From positions 1 to 60,481 of the forward strand of contig NZ_SMNA01000017.1 of the NCBI RefSeq assembly GCF_004353825.1: a stretch of DNA of 60,481 bases, in the 5' to 3' direction. The notes under the pieces are model-generated. The model was not told the origin of the DNA. It ran no database searches and saw only the letters and a program-made list of their open reading frames with translations. Positions 38,318 to 48,407 of this stretch are shown one piece after another. The translations under genes and the position numbers were made by a program. The first letter of the stretch is position 1. Every line of letters begins with the position of its first letter. This DNA comes from Occultella glacieicola (lineage in GTDB: Bacteria > Actinomycetota > Actinomycetes > Actinomycetales > Beutenbergiaceae).

Positions 38318-39136
38318 GTGTTCGGCCGCGACCGGATCGAGTACAAGACCCCCGATCAGATGCGCATCATGCGCCGAGCGGGGCTCGTGGTCGCGGACCT
38401 GCTCGACGCGGTACGGGAGCGGATCCGGCCCGGGGTGACCACGGGCGAGCTCGACGAGGTGGCCGCCCGGGTGATCGCCGACGCCGGCGCCACCTCGAAC
38501 TTCCTGCACTACCACGGCTTCCCGGCCCGGATCTGTGTGTCGGTCAACTCCGAGGTGGTGCACGGCATCCCGGGGGAGCGGGTGATCGAGCCCGGTGACG
38601 TGGTCGCGGTCGATGGCGGCGCCATCGTGGACGGATGGCATGGTGACTCGGCGTTCTCGGTCGTGGTGCCGGACGCCGATCCCGCGGACCTCGACCTCGT
38701 GCGGGTCACGGAGGAGTCGATGTGGGCGGGGATCGCGGCACTCGCCACGGCGGAGCGCCTCGGTCAGGTGGGCGAGGCCATCGACGACGTCGTCACCGCC
38801 GCCGGTGGGCTGGGGATCGTCGCCGAGTACGTCGGCCACGGGATCGGTTCGGCCATGCACCAGCCGCCGGACGTGCTCAACTATCGCTCCGGCCACCGCG
38901 GACCTCGGGTCCGCGCCGGCATGTGCCTCGCCGTCGAGCCGATGCTCGTGCGGGGTGAGCCGGCGACGGCGGTCCTCGCCGACGACTGGACGGTGGTCAC
39001 CGTGGATGGTTCCCGTGCCGCCCACTTCGAGCACACGGTCGCGGTCCACCCGGGTGGAATCTGGGTTCTGACGGCCCGGGACGGGGGCGTGGAGGGCCTC
39101 GCCCGGCACGGGGTGAGGGTGGCTCCGCTCGGCTGA
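38318..39136 (+). CDS. map: Methionine aminopeptidase type I
   Basis: VVHGIP, GWHGDSA, GHGIG, EPM, AHFEHT. Confidence 0.97.
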   Translation: MFGRDRIEYKTPDQMRIMRRAGLVVADLLDAVRERIRPGVTTGELDEVAARVIADAGATSNFLHYHGFPARICVSVNSEVVHGIPGERVIEPGDVVAVDGGAIVDGWHGDSAFSVVVPDADPADLDLVRVTEESMWAGIAALATAERLGQVGEAIDDVVTAAGGLGIVAEYVGHGIGSAMHQPPDVLNYRSGHRGPRVRAGMCLAVEPMLVRGEPATAVLADDWTVVTVDGSRAAHFEHTVAVHPGGIWVLTARDGGVEGLARHGVRVAPLG

Positions 39137-39191
39137 TCGAGCGTTCCGAGCACGCCCGTTCGGCCTGCCACATGCTTGGAACGATCAACTC

Positions 39192-39271
39192 CCACCCCGT
39201 CGTGGGACGCCTCACCCTCGCCTCACCCGCCACGTGAATCTGGTTCACCCACGGCCACCTCGCAATCATCC
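39192..39271 (+). promoter_or_regulatory. Array of helically phased TCACCC-like direct repeats
   Basis: CCACCC 39192, TCACCC 39212/39223/39245, CCACCT 39255, TCATCC 39266; spacings 20,11,22,10,11. Confidence 0.55.
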
Positions 39272-39469
39272 CTCGAACTCCTTACCGCGCCCGAACCCAG
39301 GTGGTTGAGTTCCACACAGCCGGGGATGTCAGAGGCGGCCGATCCCGCCCCTCGCTTCGCGGGAAGCCACCAGGTTGACGGAGGACGGGGCAGTGTTGAT
39401 TCGTGTCATCACCGATGCGGCGAGGACGATCTCCTGCGCGCACGGAGCACAGGACGACGAGGTAGACCG

Positions 39470-40948
39470 GTGGCACTGACAACCGACCGTCCCTCTCGGA
39501 TCCGCTCGGGCCGCGGGGAGCTCCTCGCCAGCCTGATCTCGCGGATCGCGTCGCCGGTTCCCGCTGAGGAGGAGCCGACCTGGGCGGAGGCCTCCCGTCG
39601 GTACCGGGCGATCGCGATCGCGTCGGACGCGGTGATCGCCGTGGCCGTCACCTGGCCCGCCGCCGCGTTGATGTACCCGGGCGGCCTCGCGCTCGCCATC
39701 GGAGTCGTCGTGGCCGCGTTGTTCGTGACGACCGTCGCCCTGCACGACGGTTACGACACTCGTCGAGCCGCATCGGGCGCCGCCGAACTCACCGCCATCG
39801 CGCGCAGCGGATTGCTGCTGGCCGTCGGGGTGATGGCCCTGGTCTTCGTGAACGTGGACCTGCCCCGGGTGGCGGTGATCACCAGCCTCGTCCTGATGAC
39901 CGGCGGCGCTCTCGCGCTGCGACTCGGACAGCGCTCCGTGGTTCGGCACGCCCGCTCACGGGGCAGGATGTTGCGGCGCACCCTCCTCGTCGGTTCGCCG
40001 GAGCGGCTCGCACCGGTCCTCGCCGAACTCGCCCGCGAGCCTCGGCACGGCTTCGCGATCACCGGGATCTGCCCGCCCGCCGGCAGCGGTGCCGAGGACT
40101 CCGACGCGCCCGTGGTCGGCACCGTCGAGGAGGTGCCCGACCTCATCCGGAGCCTGCGGGTGGAGACCCTGGTGATCGCCGGGGACGGCATGAGCGTCGA
40201 GGAGCTGACGAGGTTCCGGCGTCGGATCGAAGGGCTCGACGTCGAGTTGCTGGTGGCCCCGAACGTGGCCCGGGCCGGCTCGACCAGAGTGTCGCTGCGG
40301 GGCCTGACGGACACCCCGGTGCTGAGCGTGACCACCGGCCCGGGCCGGCGGCACCACTGGGGCAAGGCGGTCCTCGATCGAGGGCTCGCCGCCGTCCTCC
40401 TGCTGCTCGCCATGCTGGTGCTCGTCCCTGCTGCGATCGCGGTCCGGCTGACCTCCCGGGGGGCCGCGCTGTTCCGGCAGACTCGCGTGGGTCTGAACGG
40501 CCGACCGTTCACGATGTACAAGTTGCGGTCGATGTACCCGGATGCGGAGGCGCGCCTGGCGGCCCTCGAGGGTCGCAGTGACGGCAACGGCACACTGTTC
40601 AAGATGCGTCGCGACCCCCGGACCACGCCGGTCGGCCGGTTCCTGCGCCGCTTCTCCATCGACGAACTCCCGCAGCTGTGGAACGTGCTTCGCGGTGACA
40701 TGTCCCTCGTCGGTCCCCGGCCGCCGCTGGTCAGCGAGGCCGCCGGATACGACGACGCGAGTCGCCAACGGCTGCAGGTCCGTCCCGGGCTCACCGGACT
40801 GTGGCAGGTGAGTGGCCGCTCGGACCTGTCCTGGGAGGAGTCCATCCGGCTCGACCTGCGCTATGTCGACAACTGGACCCTGACCATGGATCTGACGATC
40901 CTCTGGCGCACCGCACGCGCCGTCCTCGGAGGCCGCGGTGCCTATTGA
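39470..40948 (+). CDS. Polyprenyl-phosphate sugar phosphotransferase (priming glycosyltransferase, WcaJ/WbaP-like)
   Basis: N-terminal TMs, central cytoplasmic domain, C-terminal Bac_transf motifs FRQTRVG, KLRSM, DPR, IDELPQLWNVLRGDMSLVGPRP, PGLTGLWQVSGR. Confidence 0.93.
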   Translation: MALTTDRPSRIRSGRGELLASLISRIASPVPAEEEPTWAEASRRYRAIAIASDAVIAVAVTWPAAALMYPGGLALAIGVVVAALFVTTVALHDGYDTRRAASGAAELTAIARSGLLLAVGVMALVFVNVDLPRVAVITSLVLMTGGALALRLGQRSVVRHARSRGRMLRRTLLVGSPERLAPVLAELAREPRHGFAITGICPPAGSGAEDSDAPVVGTVEEVPDLIRSLRVETLVIAGDGMSVEELTRFRRRIEGLDVELLVAPNVARAGSTRVSLRGLTDTPVLSVTTGPGRRHHWGKAVLDRGLAAVLLLLAMLVLVPAAIAVRLTSRGAALFRQTRVGLNGRPFTMYKLRSMYPDAEARLAALEGRSDGNGTLFKMRRDPRTTPVGRFLRRFSIDELPQLWNVLRGDMSLVGPRPPLVSEAAGYDDASRQRLQVRPGLTGLWQVSGRSDLSWEESIRLDLRYVDNWTLTMDLTILWRTARAVLGGRGAY

Positions 40949-41044
40949 ACCAGCGGGTTGGTGCCGGGTGGAGGGGGTGCGCCCTCGTACCCCCGACGGG
41001 GGCGCATCCCCGCCTCCCGGCACCACGTCGCGCGTGGTGCGTCG

Positions 41045-41830
41045 ATGATCGCCGGACGGGCGCCCGTCGCGGCGACGATGGAGGCAGACGTCGACGACCT
41101 GCACCTCGCCCAGGTGCTGGCCGGTTCGACCGGCGACCTCCTCGAGGAGTTGCGCGCCGACTGTGCAGGGCTCGAGCCTTCCGAACTCGGCCGTCGCGCC
41201 CGGGCGCGGGCGGGCAGTTTCCTGGCGTCCCAACTGATCGCACGATGCCCGATGGACTCGGTGCTGTCCGGCGTGAACGCGGGCAGTTCGGACCCGCGGG
41301 CCAGACGCACGTGGTTGATCGGCGCACTGGACGGCGCCGAGGAGTTCGCGACCGGCCGCCGGGACTGGGGGGTCAGCGTCGCCCTCCGGTCCGGGGGCGT
41401 CGTGACGGCGGCCGCCGTGGCTCTCCCGGGGCTGGACATGCTGCTCAGCATCGATTCGAGGACCCCGCCGTATCCCGGTGAGGCGCAGCGGCGCCTGGTC
41501 GTCGAGCGGGGCGCCAGCGCGGCGCTGGTGGACGCGGTGGCCGTGGCGATCGGCGGTCGCGCTGTCCGGGCCGGGTCCGTCGCGTACCGCACCGCGGCCG
41601 TCGTGCGGGGTGAGGCGGACGCGCACCTGCACCTGGGCCGACTGCCGGTCTGGGACGTCGCGGCTCCGGTTGCCGTGGCACGCGCGGCCGGGCTCCACAC
41701 GAGCCTACTGAACGGCAGCGAGGTCCCACTCGACCGGCCCGACCACGTGGTGCCCGACCTGATCATCTGCCGCAGGGAACTGGCGCCGGAACTCCTCCGG
41801 ATCGTCAGCGCCATGCCGCTGACCGAATGA
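41045..41830 (+). CDS. Inositol monophosphatase/CysQ-superfamily protein with degenerate active site
   Basis: Fold motifs DSVLS, WLIGALDGA, DWGVSVAL, AAVALP, GS, WDVAAP, HTSLLNGS resemble actinobacterial CysQ; start may be 41045 or 41078. Confidence 0.8.
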   Translation: MIAGRAPVAATMEADVDDLHLAQVLAGSTGDLLEELRADCAGLEPSELGRRARARAGSFLASQLIARCPMDSVLSGVNAGSSDPRARRTWLIGALDGAEEFATGRRDWGVSVALRSGGVVTAAAVALPGLDMLLSIDSRTPPYPGEAQRRLVVERGASAALVDAVAVAIGGRAVRAGSVAYRTAAVVRGEADAHLHLGRLPVWDVAAPVAVARAAGLHTSLLNGSEVPLDRPDHVVPDLIICRRELAPELLRIVSAMPLTE

Positions 41831-42165
41831 CCGGGCCAGGGCCGGCTCCGCGAGCGGCGCAGCGAAGCCGGGTTCGCGGCGTGTCCTAGCCGGCCAGGAC
41901 CGGCGCGAGTGTGGTAACGAGCAGGTCTCGATCTAGATCATTCACTGACATGATCGCGACCTTCTCGTTATCCTCGGGTGGTCAACCCAGTGTGAGATCG
42001 TCTGCGAGCCGCGTTCGAGCCCGTAACGGTGTGTCAGGGGGGCCTCATCGTCGCTATGCCCGACTCGTTCGGTGGCTTGATCGCTCGGAACGCGCACAGT
42101 GGTGCGCGAAGGTCGTGCTGCCTGCGTGACACGCCGTGGAACCGGATGCCTGCCGGAGGGGCCCG

Positions 42166-44625
42166 GTGACGGCCGAGACCGCGTCGCTCCCTCCTGGCCT
42201 GCCGCGGATCCCACGTGACACCCAGATCAGCGAGCACGTGCTCAACACGCTTGCGGGCGAGCACCCGCTCACGGTCCTGCGTGGGCCGCGGGGGTACGGG
42301 AAGACCAGTGCCATCGTGACCTGGATGCGCAGCGCCGACCGCCCGCACGCGACCGTCTACGTCACCCTCAGCATCGCCAGCAACGAACTGGACGGATACT
42401 GGGCGGAGCTACGGTCGGGGCTCGAGCGAGCGGAACTCCTGGGCCCTGCGGCACCGGGTTCCGACCCGCATGCGGACGTGACCGTGCTGCTCGCGGAGCG
42501 GCGGGAGCCACTGGTCCTGATCATCGACGACTTCCACGAGGCCGGGCTCAAACACGGCGCCGCGACGATCGACGACGAGATGGTCGACCTCGTGCGGCAG
42601 AACGACCAGCTGTTCCTGGTGGTCGGTTCACGGACCCTGCGAGCACTCGAGACCACCGGTGCCCTGTCCGTCGAGGCCGCGATGATCGGTCCGGCCGACC
42701 TGCGGATGACCGGGCCGCAGGTGCACGACCTGGCGTCCCGGCTCGGGCTCACGATCACGATGGACCAGGCCCAGCAGATCGCCGTCGACCTGGGTGGTTG
42801 GCCCTCGGCGATCCGGGCCGGGCTGATGCGTGCCGTGTCCGGCTCCGACGGCATCGACGGGCCGCTGGTCGACGGGAGCCTCGTCGATGGTTACATCGCC
42901 ACGATGGTGCGCGACCTGCGGTTCGAGAACGTGCGTTCGTTCCTGCTGCGCACGGCGATCCCCGAGCAGTTCGACATCGAGATGGCCCGCGCGATCGCAC
43001 CCGAGGGCAACACCGTCCGGATCCTGCGGAACGTGCGGGCGGCCGGGCTGCTCAGTGAGCGGCACACCGTCGAGGGGCAGATGTACTCCTACGCCCCGGC
43101 GATCCGCAACGCACTGATCCGGGTCATGCGGGAGTCACGCCCCGAGCTGTTCCGGGAGGTGCATCTGGCGCTGATGCATCTCTCGGCTGCCAACCGGGAC
43201 CCCGGCGAGACGCTGACACATGCGGTGCACGCGGCCCAGTGGGCCACTGCGATGGACGTCATCGAACGGCAGTGGGCGCGCCTGCTCACGCACCAGCCGC
43301 TGACCCTGATCGCCGCGGCGCGGCGGTTCCCCGACGACATGGTCGCGCAGAACGCCCGGCTCCGGGTGGCCGTCGACTACGTCGAGGGCGCACTCGACCC
43401 ACACTCACCGGACACGAACATCTGGGCGGTCCCGGACTACAGCGCCATCAACGCCATCGTCGAGGAGAACCGGTCGGAGGCAGGGGATCCCGAGCGCGAC
43501 GAGAGCCTCGTGCTCCTGCAGTGGGGCATCTCCAGTCTGCTCGGCGGCAACCTGGACACGGCCATCTACGCCTTCGGCCGTGCCCGTGAGCGCGGACTGA
43601 TCTCGCCGGCGGACACCGGCGCGCTCCAGATGGGGACCGTCGGCCTCGCCCTGGTGCACGCCGTGAACGGCGAGCCGGACCTGGCCCTGCGCTGGCTGGA
43701 GGACTCCACCCTCCAGGACCGGATCCAGCACGCCCAGCCCGAGGATGCCCGGGACATCTCGCTGGTCGCGGCCAGCATCGCCCGGGCACTCGCCATGGCC
43801 GACGCAGCCCACCCCGGCGCCGACGAGGCGGTCGCCACGATGATCGAACCACGGCACCGGGACGAGCTCTGGGCACTGACCGTGTTCATCCGAGCCCACC
43901 ACGTGGTGCTCCACGGCACTCCGGACCGGATGTTCCGGCAGACCAACCACCTGCGCGCCGCGCTGCGCCACATCGCCCGCGGGAGCCTGGTCGAAGCGGT
44001 CCTCAGCTCGACCCTCGTGGAGTTGCTCCTGGTGGCCCAGATGCCGGGGGTGGCCCGTGAGGTCGCGGACCGCTACGACGGAAACCCGGTGGCCTGGGCC
44101 GCGATCGCGAAGGTGCATCTGACCGACCGGACGTTCGGGGAGGCGATCGCCTACGCGACGAAGTCGCTCGACTCCGGAGGGTCGCGGCGCGCGGCCATGG
44201 AGTGCCAGGTCATCCTGGCCAGCGCCCACCACGCGTTGGGCAACCTCACCGAGGCCAGGCGGGCGTTCGCCGACGCCGTACGGCTGGGGCAGGCGACCGG
44301 GCAGCGGCGACCGTTCTTCCTGATGCAGCGGTACGTCTTCGACACCCTCGCCGGCGACGACCCCCGGATCCACCAGCTCTGGCCGGGCGCCGAGGGTGCG
44401 CCGGTGCAGCCGCCAGCGCCGCTGGCGGACGAGATGCAGACGCTGACCATGCGGGAGGCGCAGGTGCTGCGGGCGCTCGAGGTCCACGCCGGGCCGGTGG
44501 GCATCGCCCACGACCTCGGACTGTCGGTGAACACCGTGAAGACACACCTGCGCACCATCTACAAGAAGTTCGGCGTCTCGAACCGGAACGAGGCGCTCGC
44601 CGTGGCGGAGCGCGGCCTGCACTGA
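42166..44625 (+). CDS. MalT-like STAND ATPase-LuxR transcriptional regulator (copy 1)
   Basis: Walker A GPRGYGKT, Walker B LIIDDFH, GWP motif, C-terminal LuxR HTH (LTMRE...SVNTVKTHLRTIYKKFGV); GGAGG RBS before GTG 42166. Confidence 0.92.
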   Translation: MTAETASLPPGLPRIPRDTQISEHVLNTLAGEHPLTVLRGPRGYGKTSAIVTWMRSADRPHATVYVTLSIASNELDGYWAELRSGLERAELLGPAAPGSDPHADVTVLLAERREPLVLIIDDFHEAGLKHGAATIDDEMVDLVRQNDQLFLVVGSRTLRALETTGALSVEAAMIGPADLRMTGPQVHDLASRLGLTITMDQAQQIAVDLGGWPSAIRAGLMRAVSGSDGIDGPLVDGSLVDGYIATMVRDLRFENVRSFLLRTAIPEQFDIEMARAIAPEGNTVRILRNVRAAGLLSERHTVEGQMYSYAPAIRNALIRVMRESRPELFREVHLALMHLSAANRDPGETLTHAVHAAQWATAMDVIERQWARLLTHQPLTLIAAARRFPDDMVAQNARLRVAVDYVEGALDPHSPDTNIWAVPDYSAINAIVEENRSEAGDPERDESLVLLQWGISSLLGGNLDTAIYAFGRARERGLISPADTGALQMGTVGLALVHAVNGEPDLALRWLEDSTLQDRIQHAQPEDARDISLVAASIARALAMADAAHPGADEAVATMIEPRHRDELWALTVFIRAHHVVLHGTPDRMFRQTNHLRAALRHIARGSLVEAVLSSTLVELLLVAQMPGVAREVADRYDGNPVAWAAIAKVHLTDRTFGEAIAYATKSLDSGGSRRAAMECQVILASAHHALGNLTEARRAFADAVRLGQATGQRRPFFLMQRYVFDTLAGDDPRIHQLWPGAEGAPVQPPAPLADEMQTLTMREAQVLRALEVHAGPVGIAHDLGLSVNTVKTHLRTIYKKFGVSNRNEALAVAERGLH

Positions 44626-44832
44626 GGCTGGGTTCCGTTCCGTCAGGAACGCGGCAGGAGGAGCCTGTCGAAGCCGCACGTAATGGCATCCAATGGCACG
44701 AAGTCCGGTCGCGACGTCGCCAGTTCGTCGTCGGAAGGCTGACGTACGGCCGCGGGGTCGACCATGATGGTGACTTGTTCGAGGTCACCAGCGCCCCCGA
44801 TGGGCGATCGGGTGACCGGGGAGGAGCGGACG

Positions 44833-47412
44833 ATGATCTCACCGGCCGGCCAGGGCGCAGGCGACGGCTTCGGCATGCCCCGGGTCCCGATCGGGTTCAT
44901 CGCCGCGCCCGAGGTGCGTCGCCAGCTGGGTTCGGTTCCGTCCCTGGTGGTCTTCCGCAGCCCCAGGGGCTGGGGGAAGACCAGCACGGCGTCGCACTGG
45001 CTGCGCCGACACGGCTCCGGGTACGACCGGATCTGGATCAACGTGCCCAGTCGCGACGTCGACCGGGAGGAGTTCTGGCGGATCGTGTATCGGCGCATCA
45101 GCGACGCCGGCCTGGGGGATCTGACGGGATCGGACACCTGGGACGACGTCCATGGCGCGATCTGGAAGCGGGGCCGGGACCTGATCATCGCGATCGACGG
45201 GCTGCACCACGTCACCGACCTCGGTGTCGACGAGGAGCTTCTCGCGCTCGTGAACGCGAACGAGTCGTTCCACCTGTTCGTGACGGCGCGCAGCGAGCGC
45301 CCGATCGAGACGCTCGCGAAGATCACCGCCGACGGCATGGTGTTCCGCGTGGCCCAGCTGACGCTCGGCACGGCGGAAGTGGCGGAGCTGGCCGAGGCGG
45401 TGGGCCTACCGGTCAGCCTCGCCGAGGCCCAACGGCTGCGGACCGAGCTCGGTGGGTGGCCCGCGCTCGTGCGGGCGGTCCTGGGTGACTCGAGCCGCGG
45501 CCCCGACGGTGAGCTACGGATCGACTGGTCCGCCGTCGAGAAGTACACACGCCTGGTCCTGAGTGACCCCGACGTGGCGGCGACCGCCGCGTTCGTGATG
45601 GCGATCGCCGTCCCACGGGAGTTCACCGAGGACATCGCCGCCCATGTCCTCGGGCGAGGCGTGGCAGACCTGGCGTTCGACTACCTGACCGGTTCGGGCC
45701 TGCTCACCAGGTCGGCCGCGCCCGGCCCGCCCGCCTTCCACTATTCGAGCGTGGTGCGCCATGCCATCCTGCGGGTGTACGCCGAGCGGGATCCCGAGGG
45801 CTACCAACGGGCCAACCGGGACATGGCCGCGTGGTACCGGGAGCGCGGCGTCGCCGATGCCGCGCTGGAACACGCGGTTCGCGCGGAGGACTGGCCCTCG
45901 ACCGCGTCGCTGATCGAGGCCTTCTGGGTCGAGCTCGTCTCGGGCCATCCCGACCAGGTGCGGGACGCGCTGGGACGACTGCCGGCGGCGCTGGTCCGGG
46001 GGAGCGCCCGGCTGCTGGTCGCGCGGGACTACATCCTCAACGTGGACACCTCCGAACGCTCGTTGTCGGCGCTCAGGGCGGGGCTGCTGGACGTCGACTC
46101 CGACCTCGGCCGCACGGGCGAGCTGAGACTGTCGCTGGGTCAGGTCCTGTCGCTGCGGTCCACGGGCCAGTACGAGGTGGCCCGGGAGATCGTCGAACGG
46201 CAACGGGTCGACCTGCTCACCGCGGAGGGGGACTGGACCGAGGACGTCCTCTCCGAGATGCCCGAACTGCTCCTTCAATGGAGCATCACCCGGCTGTTCG
46301 GTGCGGACACGGTGGGTGCCGCGTACGCGTTCCGGGAGGCCTACCGGTGGGCCGGCGAACGCGGGCTGACCCCGGCTAAGCGGGAGGCGGGCGCCGGCCT
46401 GGCGCTCTCATTGGCGGTACTCGGACACACCCTCGGCGCCCAGCGGTGGTTGGCGCGTGTCGAAGGCCTCGCCCGCTCCGACGACACCGAGCCGACCACC
46501 CTCGAGCACCTGAGCGTCCGGTTCGTGCAGGAGATCATCGACCTGGACTCCCTCCGGCTCGAGGTCGGACCGCAATGGTGCGATCCCAAGGTCCCGGTCG
46601 CGCTCGGCGACCTGAGGGCCATCGCGCTCCAGCTCCACGCGAGCCGGTCGATGCACGCGGGCAGCCGGTTCGACTCCATCGGCATGCTGGAGAGTTACCG
46701 GCAGCAGTTGCAGGAGCAGGGCCGGGGACCGGGTCTGGCCGACAACGTGGTGGTCACCGCGCTCGTGGACCTGCTGATCCAGACCGGCCAGTCCGACCGT
46801 GCCCGGGCGATGCTCGCCCACGCCGATCCGGCGAGCTCGTGGCAACGGCTGGCCCTCGCCCGTCATTCGCTGTACGCGGGGGAGTTCGAGGACGCGATCG
46901 CCTTCACGGACAACGCGGTCCCCCAGGCCGGCGTCCGGCCACGCACCGCCCTGCACCTGGCGCTGATCCGAGCCAGCGCGTCCCACCGCGCCGGACTCGC
47001 CGATCAGGCCGCCGATGCCCTGCACCTTGCGATCGCGGTCGCCGAGCAGAGCGGGCAGTTGCGGCCGTTCCTGATGGTGCCGCGGGCGGACCTGGAGGAG
47101 ATCGGTGCATCGATGCCCCAGGCCGCGGAGTTCCTCTACCGCCCGGAACTGGTGGACGCACCGGAGCTGTTCCCGGCCCCGCACGAGGCGATCCGGCTCA
47201 GCGAACGCGAGCTGAGGGTCCTCACGGAGATCGCCCCCGGCCTGTCGCTGAGCCACGCGGCCCGACGTCTGTACGTCTCGGAGAACACGATCAAGACCCA
47301 GATGCGCAACATCTACCGGAAGTTGGGCGTGCACACCCGCGAGGACGCCATCGACCGCGCGCGTGAACTCGGTCTGCTGGCACCCCTGGCGGACGTCGAC
47401 TCCGTCGACTGA
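44833..47412 (+). CDS. MalT-like STAND ATPase-LuxR transcriptional regulator (copy 2)
   Basis: Walker A SPRGWGKT, Walker B IAIDGLH, GWP motif, LuxR HTH (LSERE...SENTIKTQMRNIYRKLGV); GAGGAG RBS before ATG 44833. Confidence 0.92.
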   Translation: MISPAGQGAGDGFGMPRVPIGFIAAPEVRRQLGSVPSLVVFRSPRGWGKTSTASHWLRRHGSGYDRIWINVPSRDVDREEFWRIVYRRISDAGLGDLTGSDTWDDVHGAIWKRGRDLIIAIDGLHHVTDLGVDEELLALVNANESFHLFVTARSERPIETLAKITADGMVFRVAQLTLGTAEVAELAEAVGLPVSLAEAQRLRTELGGWPALVRAVLGDSSRGPDGELRIDWSAVEKYTRLVLSDPDVAATAAFVMAIAVPREFTEDIAAHVLGRGVADLAFDYLTGSGLLTRSAAPGPPAFHYSSVVRHAILRVYAERDPEGYQRANRDMAAWYRERGVADAALEHAVRAEDWPSTASLIEAFWVELVSGHPDQVRDALGRLPAALVRGSARLLVARDYILNVDTSERSLSALRAGLLDVDSDLGRTGELRLSLGQVLSLRSTGQYEVAREIVERQRVDLLTAEGDWTEDVLSEMPELLLQWSITRLFGADTVGAAYAFREAYRWAGERGLTPAKREAGAGLALSLAVLGHTLGAQRWLARVEGLARSDDTEPTTLEHLSVRFVQEIIDLDSLRLEVGPQWCDPKVPVALGDLRAIALQLHASRSMHAGSRFDSIGMLESYRQQLQEQGRGPGLADNVVVTALVDLLIQTGQSDRARAMLAHADPASSWQRLALARHSLYAGEFEDAIAFTDNAVPQAGVRPRTALHLALIRASASHRAGLADQAADALHLAIAVAEQSGQLRPFLMVPRADLEEIGASMPQAAEFLYRPELVDAPELFPAPHEAIRLSERELRVLTEIAPGLSLSHAARRLYVSENTIKTQMRNIYRKLGVHTREDAIDRARELGLLAPLADVDSVD

Positions 47413-47432
47413 GCCCGGCGCGGTCGACGAGG

Positions 47433-47495
47433 TCACCCTCCTCCCTCACCCGCACCACCCGTAGTCGCGGCTGCCGATTCACCAGCCGATCACCA
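47433..47495 (+). promoter_or_regulatory. TCACC[C/A] box array upstream of putative sRNA unit 1
   Basis: TCACCC 47433/47446, CCACCC 47455, TCACCA 47479/47490. Confidence 0.5.
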
Positions 47496-47539
47496 CGCGG
47501 GTGGCTACGCGGCCCGTCCGGATCTGGTGATCTTGTTCC

Positions 47540-47760
47540 GGTCCCGCCTCCGCGTCGAGTAGCCCATGACGCCGGTCGTGCCGGATCCAGACGACCGATC
47601 GCCGAGGCTGGGGGAGACACGTGAGCCACACAGCGGGATAGGACATGCGGTGGCCGATCGGCCACCGCCACAGACGCGGCCGCCGTTTCGCTCCCCCCGG
47701 GACGACGCCGCACCACACAGGGGCCTCGGTCGTCTCCCCCACGGCCGGGGCCTCTGTGCT
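47540..47760 (+). ncRNA. Putative 6C-like small RNA, unit 1 (two adjacent hairpins with CUCCCCC loops); 5' end uncertain
   Basis: Hairpins 47676-47711 and 47716-47758 (18-bp stem), both with CTCCCCC loops; 22-bp palindrome 47647-47668 upstream; G-U pairs form only on the + strand. Confidence 0.6.
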
Positions 47761-47778
47761 CCGTCCGGCCCTCGCGTC

Positions 47779-47830
47779 TCACCCCCTCCGGGTCAGGAGT
47801 CACCCCGGCACGATCACCACCCGTTCATCT
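47779..47830 (+). promoter_or_regulatory. TCACC[C/A] box array upstream of putative sRNA unit 2
   Basis: TCACCC 47779/47800, TCACCA 47814, TCATCT 47825. Confidence 0.45.
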
Positions 47831-47877
47831 GTCGGGGGCATTGGTCCGGGCCGGGGGATCTGGTCAGATTGATCATG

Positions 47878-47985
47878 TTCGGACCGGTACACCGGTCCGG
47901 GTTCCGCACCCGCGACTCCAAGCGCGGATCCGCGGTAACGAGCAGGGGCTCCGGTCGTTTCCCCCACGGCCGGGGCCCCTGCTTC
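47878..47985 (+). ncRNA. Putative 6C-like small RNA, unit 2 (paralog of unit 1); ends uncertain
   Basis: Hairpins 47880-47899, 47901-47939 (ACTCCAAG loop) and 47941-47983 (18-bp stem, TTCCCCC loop); the last is homologous to 47716-47758 with pairing-preserving changes. Confidence 0.55.
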
Positions 47986-48185
47986 GACGTTCGGCGCCGG
48001 TCGGTGTGAGCGAGACCGCAGTGGGGTCGCTTCCCCGCGGTTACCGCAACTGTCGGCGATGCCGTACGATAGACCGTTGGGCGTGGCATGTCGCGGGTTC
48101 TCCCGCGCGCACCGTGTCGCGCCCGGTTCGGACCAGCAGGTCGGCGGGCACGTCGGCATGCACAGCACAGCAGTTAGCGGAGGAC

Positions 48186-48407
48186 ATGGCAAAGAAGGAC
48201 GGTGTCATCGAGATCGAGGGCAACGTGGTCGAGGCGCTGCCGAACGCGATGTTTCGCGTGGAGCTCACCAACGGTCACAAGGTTCTCGCTCACATCTCGG
48301 GCAAGATGAGGCAGCACTACATCCGGATCCTCCCCGAGGACCGGGTCGTGGTCGAACTCAGCCCGTACGACCTGTCCCGCGGACGCATCGTCTACCGCTA
48401 CAAGTAA
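48186..48407 (+). CDS. infA: Translation initiation factor IF-1
   Basis: [26 protein letters not shown]. Confidence 0.99.

Follow-up and report, generated by a model that had tools for sequence, protein, structure and literature searches.

A pair of MalT-like regulator genes lies between map and infA on the Occultella glacieicola contig that we analyzed (60,481 nt, hereafter the window), and we propose that the two proteins jointly activate surface-matrix genes through direct repeats of TCACCC, forming a predicted regulon of the MalT type (probability roughly 0.62). This proposal draws on the domain make-up of the regulators, their synteny, arrays of TCACCC-type boxes, the 11-bp period of those boxes, a fixed spacing to a downstream hexamer, and the pattern of presence and absence across the family. 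The locus (39137..48185) is embedded in the spc-alpha ribosomal cluster, flanked by map (38318-39136) and infA (48186-48407). Every element is on the + strand, in the order priming glycosyltransferase (GT) gene, CysQ-like gene, regulator 1, regulator 2 and a 773-nt non-coding stretch. A preliminary description of this DNA had given the same order, and its components (two STAND-LuxR genes, a priming GT, a degenerate CysQ-like gene and repeated non-coding units) were all recovered, by profile matches and by a 39-nt repeat.

Both regulators consist of an N-terminal nucleotide-binding oligomerization domain (NOD), a TPR-like sensor and a C-terminal LuxR helix-turn-helix (HTH) domain, which identifies them as MalT-like STAND-LuxR (LAL) proteins. 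They are 27% identical to each other and scored 113.4 and 88.4 bits against the MalT profile NF003420, below its cut-off of 537. A Ruania orthologue of regulator 1 aligned with the NOD of MalT (8BOB, E 7e-15), the aligned part taking in Walker A and the Walker B aspartate pair (DD). This pair is retained in 19 of 25 regulator 1 orthologues, the O. glacieicola protein included, and in 4 of 24 regulator 2 orthologues, where the O. glacieicola protein reads DG. The second Walker B aspartate is the hydrolytic residue. ATP hydrolysis resets STAND proteins (PMC4381067). Both regulator genes are under strong constraint (dN/dS 0.03-0.10), and their order is the same across five genera, whether they sit at the junction or have relocated. 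No TCACC box was found before regulator 1 in the O. glacieicola genome. The regulator 1 leader carries a G-rich motif (window 42030-42046), conserved as far as genome G004, that could pair with the C-loops described below or be a protein site. A shorter TPR-LuxR paralogue without the NOD is encoded on another contig (C18:102451-104076), with similar matches of 548-627 aa in several relatives.

We compared the map-infA junction across 36 genomes of the family; infA was located in 31, and one contig was too short, leaving 30 informative junctions. A MalT-like gene occurs within ~4 kb upstream of infA in 24 of the 30: as a pair in 23 (two split by contig ends) and as a single regulator in G010. 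The notion that an insertion had interrupted a normally tight map-infA junction did not hold, as map directly adjoins infA in one genome only (G005, 1/30), whose two regulator pairs are located elsewhere. In five others (5/30; genera g4, g5 and g10, loci L039-L042 and L051) map is missing from the junction and adk adjoins infA. The GT and CysQ-like genes are present at 6/30 junctions (four in genus g1, the others in g2 and g8), and hairpins with a T-C5 loop are found at exactly the same six and at none of the other 24. Regulator genes occupy the junction without GT, CysQ-like gene or hairpins in 18 of the 24 genomes. The locus is therefore two-layered: the regulator pair is old, and the GT gene, CysQ-like gene and hairpins form a patchy module. 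The expected co-occurrence of all components in relatives was thus borne out for the module and failed for the regulators, and the nine kilobases are not a single co-inherited system.

A mobile island or recent insertion can be ruled out from host-like composition (GC 0.69-0.73 in the map-infA interval, similar to the flanks), family-wide synteny and the lack of visible mobility genes or att-type repeats; as first described, no integrase or transposase open reading frame (ORF) or flanking repeat was seen in the interval. Synonymous divergence points the same way: compared with the O. glacieicola genome, the locus genes have dS of 0.56-0.75, and adk and map have 0.38-0.56. By regulator 1, the closest named relatives are Occultella gossypii and O. 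aeris (91%), then Ruania albidiflava (54%). G038, from another family, has a single regulator at this junction, and in G016 frameshifts split regulator 1 (L028:9608-12234).

The surroundings of the regulators in relatives point to surface functions. Relocated pairs adjoin polysaccharide, adhesin, TasA/SipW-like or sortase-pilus genes, several of them with arrays. One pair in G005 is divergent from a GT gene with an array between them, and the second lies, with an array, directly before a sortase pilus operon. In genus g9, where map is not upstream of the pair, polysaccharide genes (Wzz/Wzc, glycosyltransferases, a flippase) take its place. A DUF11 adhesin gene follows the pair in genus g7, joined in G041 by a VWA/camelysin/signal-peptidase cluster, and in three Ruania-group genomes a GT and polysaccharide cluster lies ~5 kb downstream of the pair.

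The TCACC boxes reported earlier before the GT gene and both non-coding units proved to be enriched, with four in the 344 nt before the GT gene (shuffle mean 0.87, p 0.009) and seven in 775 nt of the non-coding stretch (shuffle mean 1.9, p 0.004). The four-box GT array has the same gaps (11, 22 and 21) in 4/4 congeners. We defined an array as at least three same-strand TCACCY or TCATCC boxes within 100 nt. Arrays preceded 16 of 20 priming-GT genes, representing 16 of 18 regulator-bearing genomes; among them was the single-regulator genome G010, with four boxes. The misses were G011 and G022 (two boxes each) and two second GT copies (one box each). Where the pair was not found, no priming GT had an array (0/6 genes in five genomes; G013 has no GT). 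The motif was first spotted in eight of the 18 genomes and three more are close kin; of the remaining seven non-congeneric genomes, not used to spot it, five passed the array test. This comparison (16/18 vs 0/5 genomes) supports the suggestion that TCACC arrays act as activator sites for the regulator pair and are a hallmark of polysaccharide promoters.

Box placement is also regular. Pooled spacings peaked at 11.0 bp (mean cosine 0.52), and a T-N4-T hexamer, often after TG, follows the last box after 33 nt in 10 of 21 promoters, after 34 nt in three and after 23 nt in four, where 0.82 is expected per spacing (nominal P 2e-9, post hoc and from kin that are not independent). If the hexamer is a -10, one box would fall near -41 to -36, or a turn further upstream. 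In MalT boxes, which overlap -35, the 5' end of the core GGA(T/G)GA lies close to -35 (PMC7567727). TCACCC is the reverse complement of that core with one change, the coding-strand core being TC(A/C)TCC in the same placement; sequence, phasing and spacing of the predicted boxes fit the layout of a MalT-type regulon. From the 16S rRNA tail, TCACC might also be read as an anti-Shine-Dalgarno (anti-SD) RNA element; we set this aside, given that the boxes show helical phasing and sit ahead of the predicted -10.

A scan of the O. glacieicola genome found arrays before 6 of 4,623 genes (own gene caller), and the GT gene tied for the highest box count. Two others, a GT4 gene and a PqqD gene, belong to a Wzy-type cluster on contig C19; a fourth gene lies 10 kb beyond, and two more complete the set. 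The strict scan missed both non-coding units, their proximal boxes being variant forms. The Wzy-type cluster (L075:4865-19532 and L076:86-7890), with two box-array promoters, also encodes C-methyltransferases, a 992-aa fibronectin-repeat secreted protein and a PqqD/HprK-like/nucleotidyltransferase module. Elsewhere, an array and a good -10 precede a short ORF, an AAA ATPase gene, a gene of unknown type and a patatin-like gene (L076:12740-18029), and another array precedes three uncharacterized genes, the last TPR-rich (L078:7710-13350).

Several observations weigh against control of surface genes by the pair. G020 and G024 have the pair and no priming GT anywhere, and the pair of G014 has no surface-gene neighbor among the genes scanned. 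The five pair-less genomes belong to three genera and may reflect one loss event, and motif and spacing had been spotted before the counting. Three of the six array genes in O. glacieicola have no evident polysaccharide link, and six is itself a modest count beside the 3, 1 and 3 genes obtained with scrambled words and the 9 in reverse orientation, so we place weight on which genes are found and on phasing, not on number. Under the strict definition, 3/7 cluster loci of relatives (L056-L062) and the L075 half of the O. glacieicola cluster had no array. In both non-coding units the proximal boxes deviate at position 6, and the -10-like hexamers do not have the usual A at position 2. Finally, at least four further MalT-like loci exist in the O. 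glacieicola genome and could read the same half-site.

By analogy with MalT, an inducer would trigger ADP/ATP exchange and oligomerization of the paired regulators, whose HTH domains would then bind cooperatively, with the last box near -41 to -36 or a helical turn upstream of that. Regulator 1 may supply ATP turnover, with regulator 2, usually devoid of the second Walker B acid, as a co-subunit. In O. glacieicola the predicted targets would be the lone priming GT and the two promoters of the Wzy-type cluster on C19.

The likeness to Escherichia coli MalT extends from the NOD-sensor-LuxR architecture and aligned Walker motifs (8BOB; PMC10427625, PMC4381067) to the boxes, which are direct repeats near -35 in the same inferred orientation, with a core one base off GGA(T/G)GA and in some cases exact. 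Unlike MalT, the regulators here come as two paralogues in tandem, one of which usually has no Walker B DD; their scores of 113 and 88 bits stay below the cut-off of 537, and polysaccharide, pilus and adhesin genes are the predicted targets. The MalT regulon of Actinoplanes sp. SE50/110 (MRLGR; PMC7567727) likewise features two MalT-like genes, a TCATCC half-site overlapping -35 and non-maltose targets; however, its site is a palindrome, TCATCC-N5-GGATGA, and one regulator is enough, whereas here the arrays are same-strand and 11-bp-phased and the predicted surface-gene targets are dispersed. In open-access literature we found no description of MalT-like/LuxR control of surface polysaccharide, pilus or adhesin genes in this actinobacterial family, nor of the paired system proposed here. 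The RcsAB regulon includes the small RNA RprA. RcsAB capsule control in enterobacteria resembles our proposal in logic only, as a LuxR-type pair activating capsule genes (PMC5829831), but its members are phosphorelay response regulators rather than STAND ATPases and its box is unrelated.

The two non-coding units share their layout with the GT promoter: boxes, 32-33 nt, a TGG-led T-N4-T hexamer, and then hairpins. Transcription of the candidate hairpin units from box-controlled promoters seems to us slightly better than an even bet. A scan for a sigma-70 consensus and U-tail terminators found nothing in the units. Folding was strong for HP1+HP2 (z -4.4) and unit 2 (z -6.7), and the box stretches had no such folding. 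The 39-nt repeat is present in two copies (90% identity) and nowhere else in the genome, which rules out a dispersed REP-like repeat. Reading the units as protein-coding, through a 147-aa ORF or, at unit 2, a leaderless one, was also rejected, given lengths of 44, 113, 54, 20 and 100 aa in five genomes, and frameshifts.

The units might instead be relics, that is, box promoters and G+C-rich terminator hairpins left after loss of a target gene and now insulating the infA promoter. We regard this as possible, though clearly on the weaker side. The unit 1 slot holds a 52-aa ORF led by a ribosome-binding site (RBS) in G003, with a hydrophobic stretch and a basic tail, a 6-codon remnant in O. glacieicola, and a deletion in G001 and G002; in genus g7 the adhesin gene occupies the slot of the units, and in G010 hairpins come right after the CysQ-like gene, with no boxes. 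Yet the loops are fixed as (C/U)UCCCCC in 9/9 HP2/HP3-type copies, and a terminator needs no constant loop. Stem pairing is likewise preserved, in 94/96 stem cells over six distinct HP2/HP3 copies, mostly via G-C/G-U changes (G004, of uncertain register, contributes most double stem changes), and congeners share 84-92% identity in the hairpin segments compared with 60-68% in several neighboring stretches.

What such RNAs might do is suggested by 6C (B11) small RNA of high-GC Gram-positives (RF01066), which represses G-rich 5' untranslated regions through its C-rich loops (PMC6486639). As in 6C, adjacent stable hairpins present unpaired C-runs able to pair with a G-rich RBS; HP1+HP2 supply the two adjacent C-rich-loop hairpins that characterize 6C, and unit 2 has one such loop. 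In contrast to 6C, the loops have five Cs, the units occur at 6/30 junctions and control by a MalT-like activator is predicted. Covariance scores of 26.9 and 19.7 bits fell below the RF01066 gathering score of 47, which none of the 36 family genomes reached, and these sub-threshold scores rule out a canonical 6C RNA. Anti-SD action of the predicted RNAs is plausible; that the candidates repress G-rich ribosome-binding sites just as 6C does is a tentative suggestion, from analogy, that we would not favor. The loop complement TGGGGGAGA occurs 40 times in the genome, never within 25 nt of a called start (own gene caller), although three occurrences lie just before plausible starts, and the search for loop targets yielded neither an enriched target set nor an excess of polysaccharide genes. 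Genome-wide there are 20 C-loop candidates, with stems of at least 12 bp in two unrelated ones only. The RBS of the 6-codon ORF remnant (window 47609-47618) is the exact complement of the HP2 loop.

Two explanations compete for the arrays themselves. The boxes may be genuine activator sites read by another LuxR-type protein, such as a MalT-like paralogue, while the pair merely neighbors surface genes. The further MalT-like loci noted above would permit this, as would the generic nature of TCAYCC as a MalT-family half-site. It is nevertheless unlikely, since pair-less genomes retain weak MalT-like matches and still show no arrays before their priming GTs, and since in G005 both pairs sit directly beside an array and its surface gene or operon. 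A shade less probable still is that one regulator activates and the other is a dispensable or antagonistic paralogue. The array in single-regulator G010 and the Actinoplanes MalT region, where deleting the second MalT-like gene had slight effects only (PMC7567727), speak for this, but the purifying selection on both regulators and their fixed order over five genera argue against it.

The GT gene of the patchy module encodes a priming GT by TIGR03025 (388.8 bits, cut-off 295.55), with scores below the WcaJ and WbaP equivalog cut-offs; the O. glacieicola genome has no second copy. Its CysQ-like neighbor reached the Pfam cut-off of the inositol monophosphatase (IMPase) family (PF00459, 63.3 bits) and not that of TIGR01331 (40.8 bits, cut-off 228.8). 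The best structural relative is the M. tuberculosis CysQ phosphatase of 3'-phosphoadenosine-5'-phosphate (PDB 5DJF; 249 residues, E 4e-31), compared with which the metal-ligand motifs are degenerate. IMPase Mg ligands are the Glu of a GEEG-like motif, two Asp of DPxDGT and the Asp of WD (PMC2080633). In 4/4 congeners two of these four (the Glu and the first Asp) and the motif Thr are lost, SEE and DPLDGT reading SGV and GALDGA/V, and the second Asp and WD are kept. G004 retains the acids, G010 is without the Glu and the WD Asp, and losses differ between g1 and g8. The gene is still under purifying selection (dN/dS 0.07-0.18).

CysQ-like genes were matched in 8/36 family genomes; the two copies off the junction lie with cysD/cysN or cysD/cysC, one of them beside Wzz. 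The O. glacieicola genome has no PF01507 match (CysD/CysH-type) and, for adenosine 5'-phosphosulfate (APS) kinase, only a 41-residue fragment match, so the ancestral CysQ pathway appears gone. The gene is probably a kept, inactive remnant of a sulfated-polysaccharide cys block, and its predicted product most likely serves the GT pathway, rather than the regulators, in a non-catalytic role. The earlier idea of a ligand-sensing or inhibitory partner of the regulators, comparable to MalY or Aes for MalT, is improbable: ligand loss under purifying selection, the apparent loss of the pathway and the control of MalT by moonlighting enzymes (PMC10427625) would suit it, but the gene follows the GT gene in 6/6 junction cases and so tracks the GT, the regulator pair is far more widespread, and the cys-linked homologues and differing ligand losses also count against it. 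Modeling the CysQ-like protein together with the NOD of regulator 1 (score 0.00) speaks neither for nor against a complex.

The widest version of our proposal would make a hetero-oligomeric STAND switch, with one hydrolyzing and one hydrolysis-dead subunit, the master activator of the biofilm matrix in the family, driving in some genera also a new family of 6C-like C-loop small RNAs that travel with the dead CysQ and would add post-transcriptional control; we consider it rather unlikely in full. The predicted regulon would be new in its surface-gene targets, its pairing of active and degenerate regulators and the linked C-loop RNA candidate, and is otherwise of the known MalT type. If it is real, capsule, pilus and adhesin genes of the family would have a named activator and an operator that is simple to scan for, and the regulon offers a bacterial test case for an active plus degenerate STAND pair, and supplies a defined promoter class for direct testing of the two candidate C-loop RNAs.

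Table 1. Features between map and infA, in window coordinates
Feature	Position	Strand	Remarks
Box array before GT gene	39212..39271	+	TCACCC at 39212, 39223, 39245; TCATCC at 39266; gaps 11, 22, 21
Predicted extended -10 of GT gene, TGG-TTGAGT	39302..39310	+	33 nt past last box
Priming polyprenyl-phosphate glycosyltransferase	39470..40948	+	Start codon based on orthologues; open frame extends back to 39176
30-bp hairpin between GT and CysQ-like genes	40959..41025	+	Possible terminator or mRNA stabilizer
CysQ-like IMPase-fold protein, predicted pseudo-phosphatase	41045..41830	+	Without Glu and first Asp metal ligands and motif Thr
Regulator 1, STAND-LuxR	42166..44625	+	Walker A and Walker B DD intact; frame open from 42136, start inferred
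Regulator 2, STAND-LuxR	44833..47412	+	Walker A, Walker B DG; open frame extends back to 44764; start predicted by RBS and orthologues
Unit 1 predicted promoter	47433..47533	+	Boxes 47433, 47446, 47479, 47490 (last two TCACCA variants); -10-like TGG-TGATCT ends 47533
Unit 1 predicted RNA	47540..47762	+	Variable 5' part with 6-codon ORF remnant; C-loop hairpins HP1 (47676-47711) and HP2 (47716-47758)
Unit 2 predicted promoter	47779..47869	+	Boxes 47779, 47800, 47814, 47825 (last two variants); -10-like TGG-TCAGAT ends 47869
Unit 2 predicted RNA	47876..47987	+	Three hairpins, last is C-loop HP3 (47939-47986); 92% identity among congeners over 47916-47987
infA own promoter region	48005..48070	+	TGTGA-N6-CCGCA site; -10 TACGAT at 48065-48070

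Downstream of the non-coding units, infA has its own promoter, which is found family-wide. The TGTGA-N6-CCGCA element before it (48005-48020), which we take to be a CRP/GlxR-like site, keeps a constant distance (55-56 nt to an anchor motif) before the infA promoter in 13/30 family junctions.

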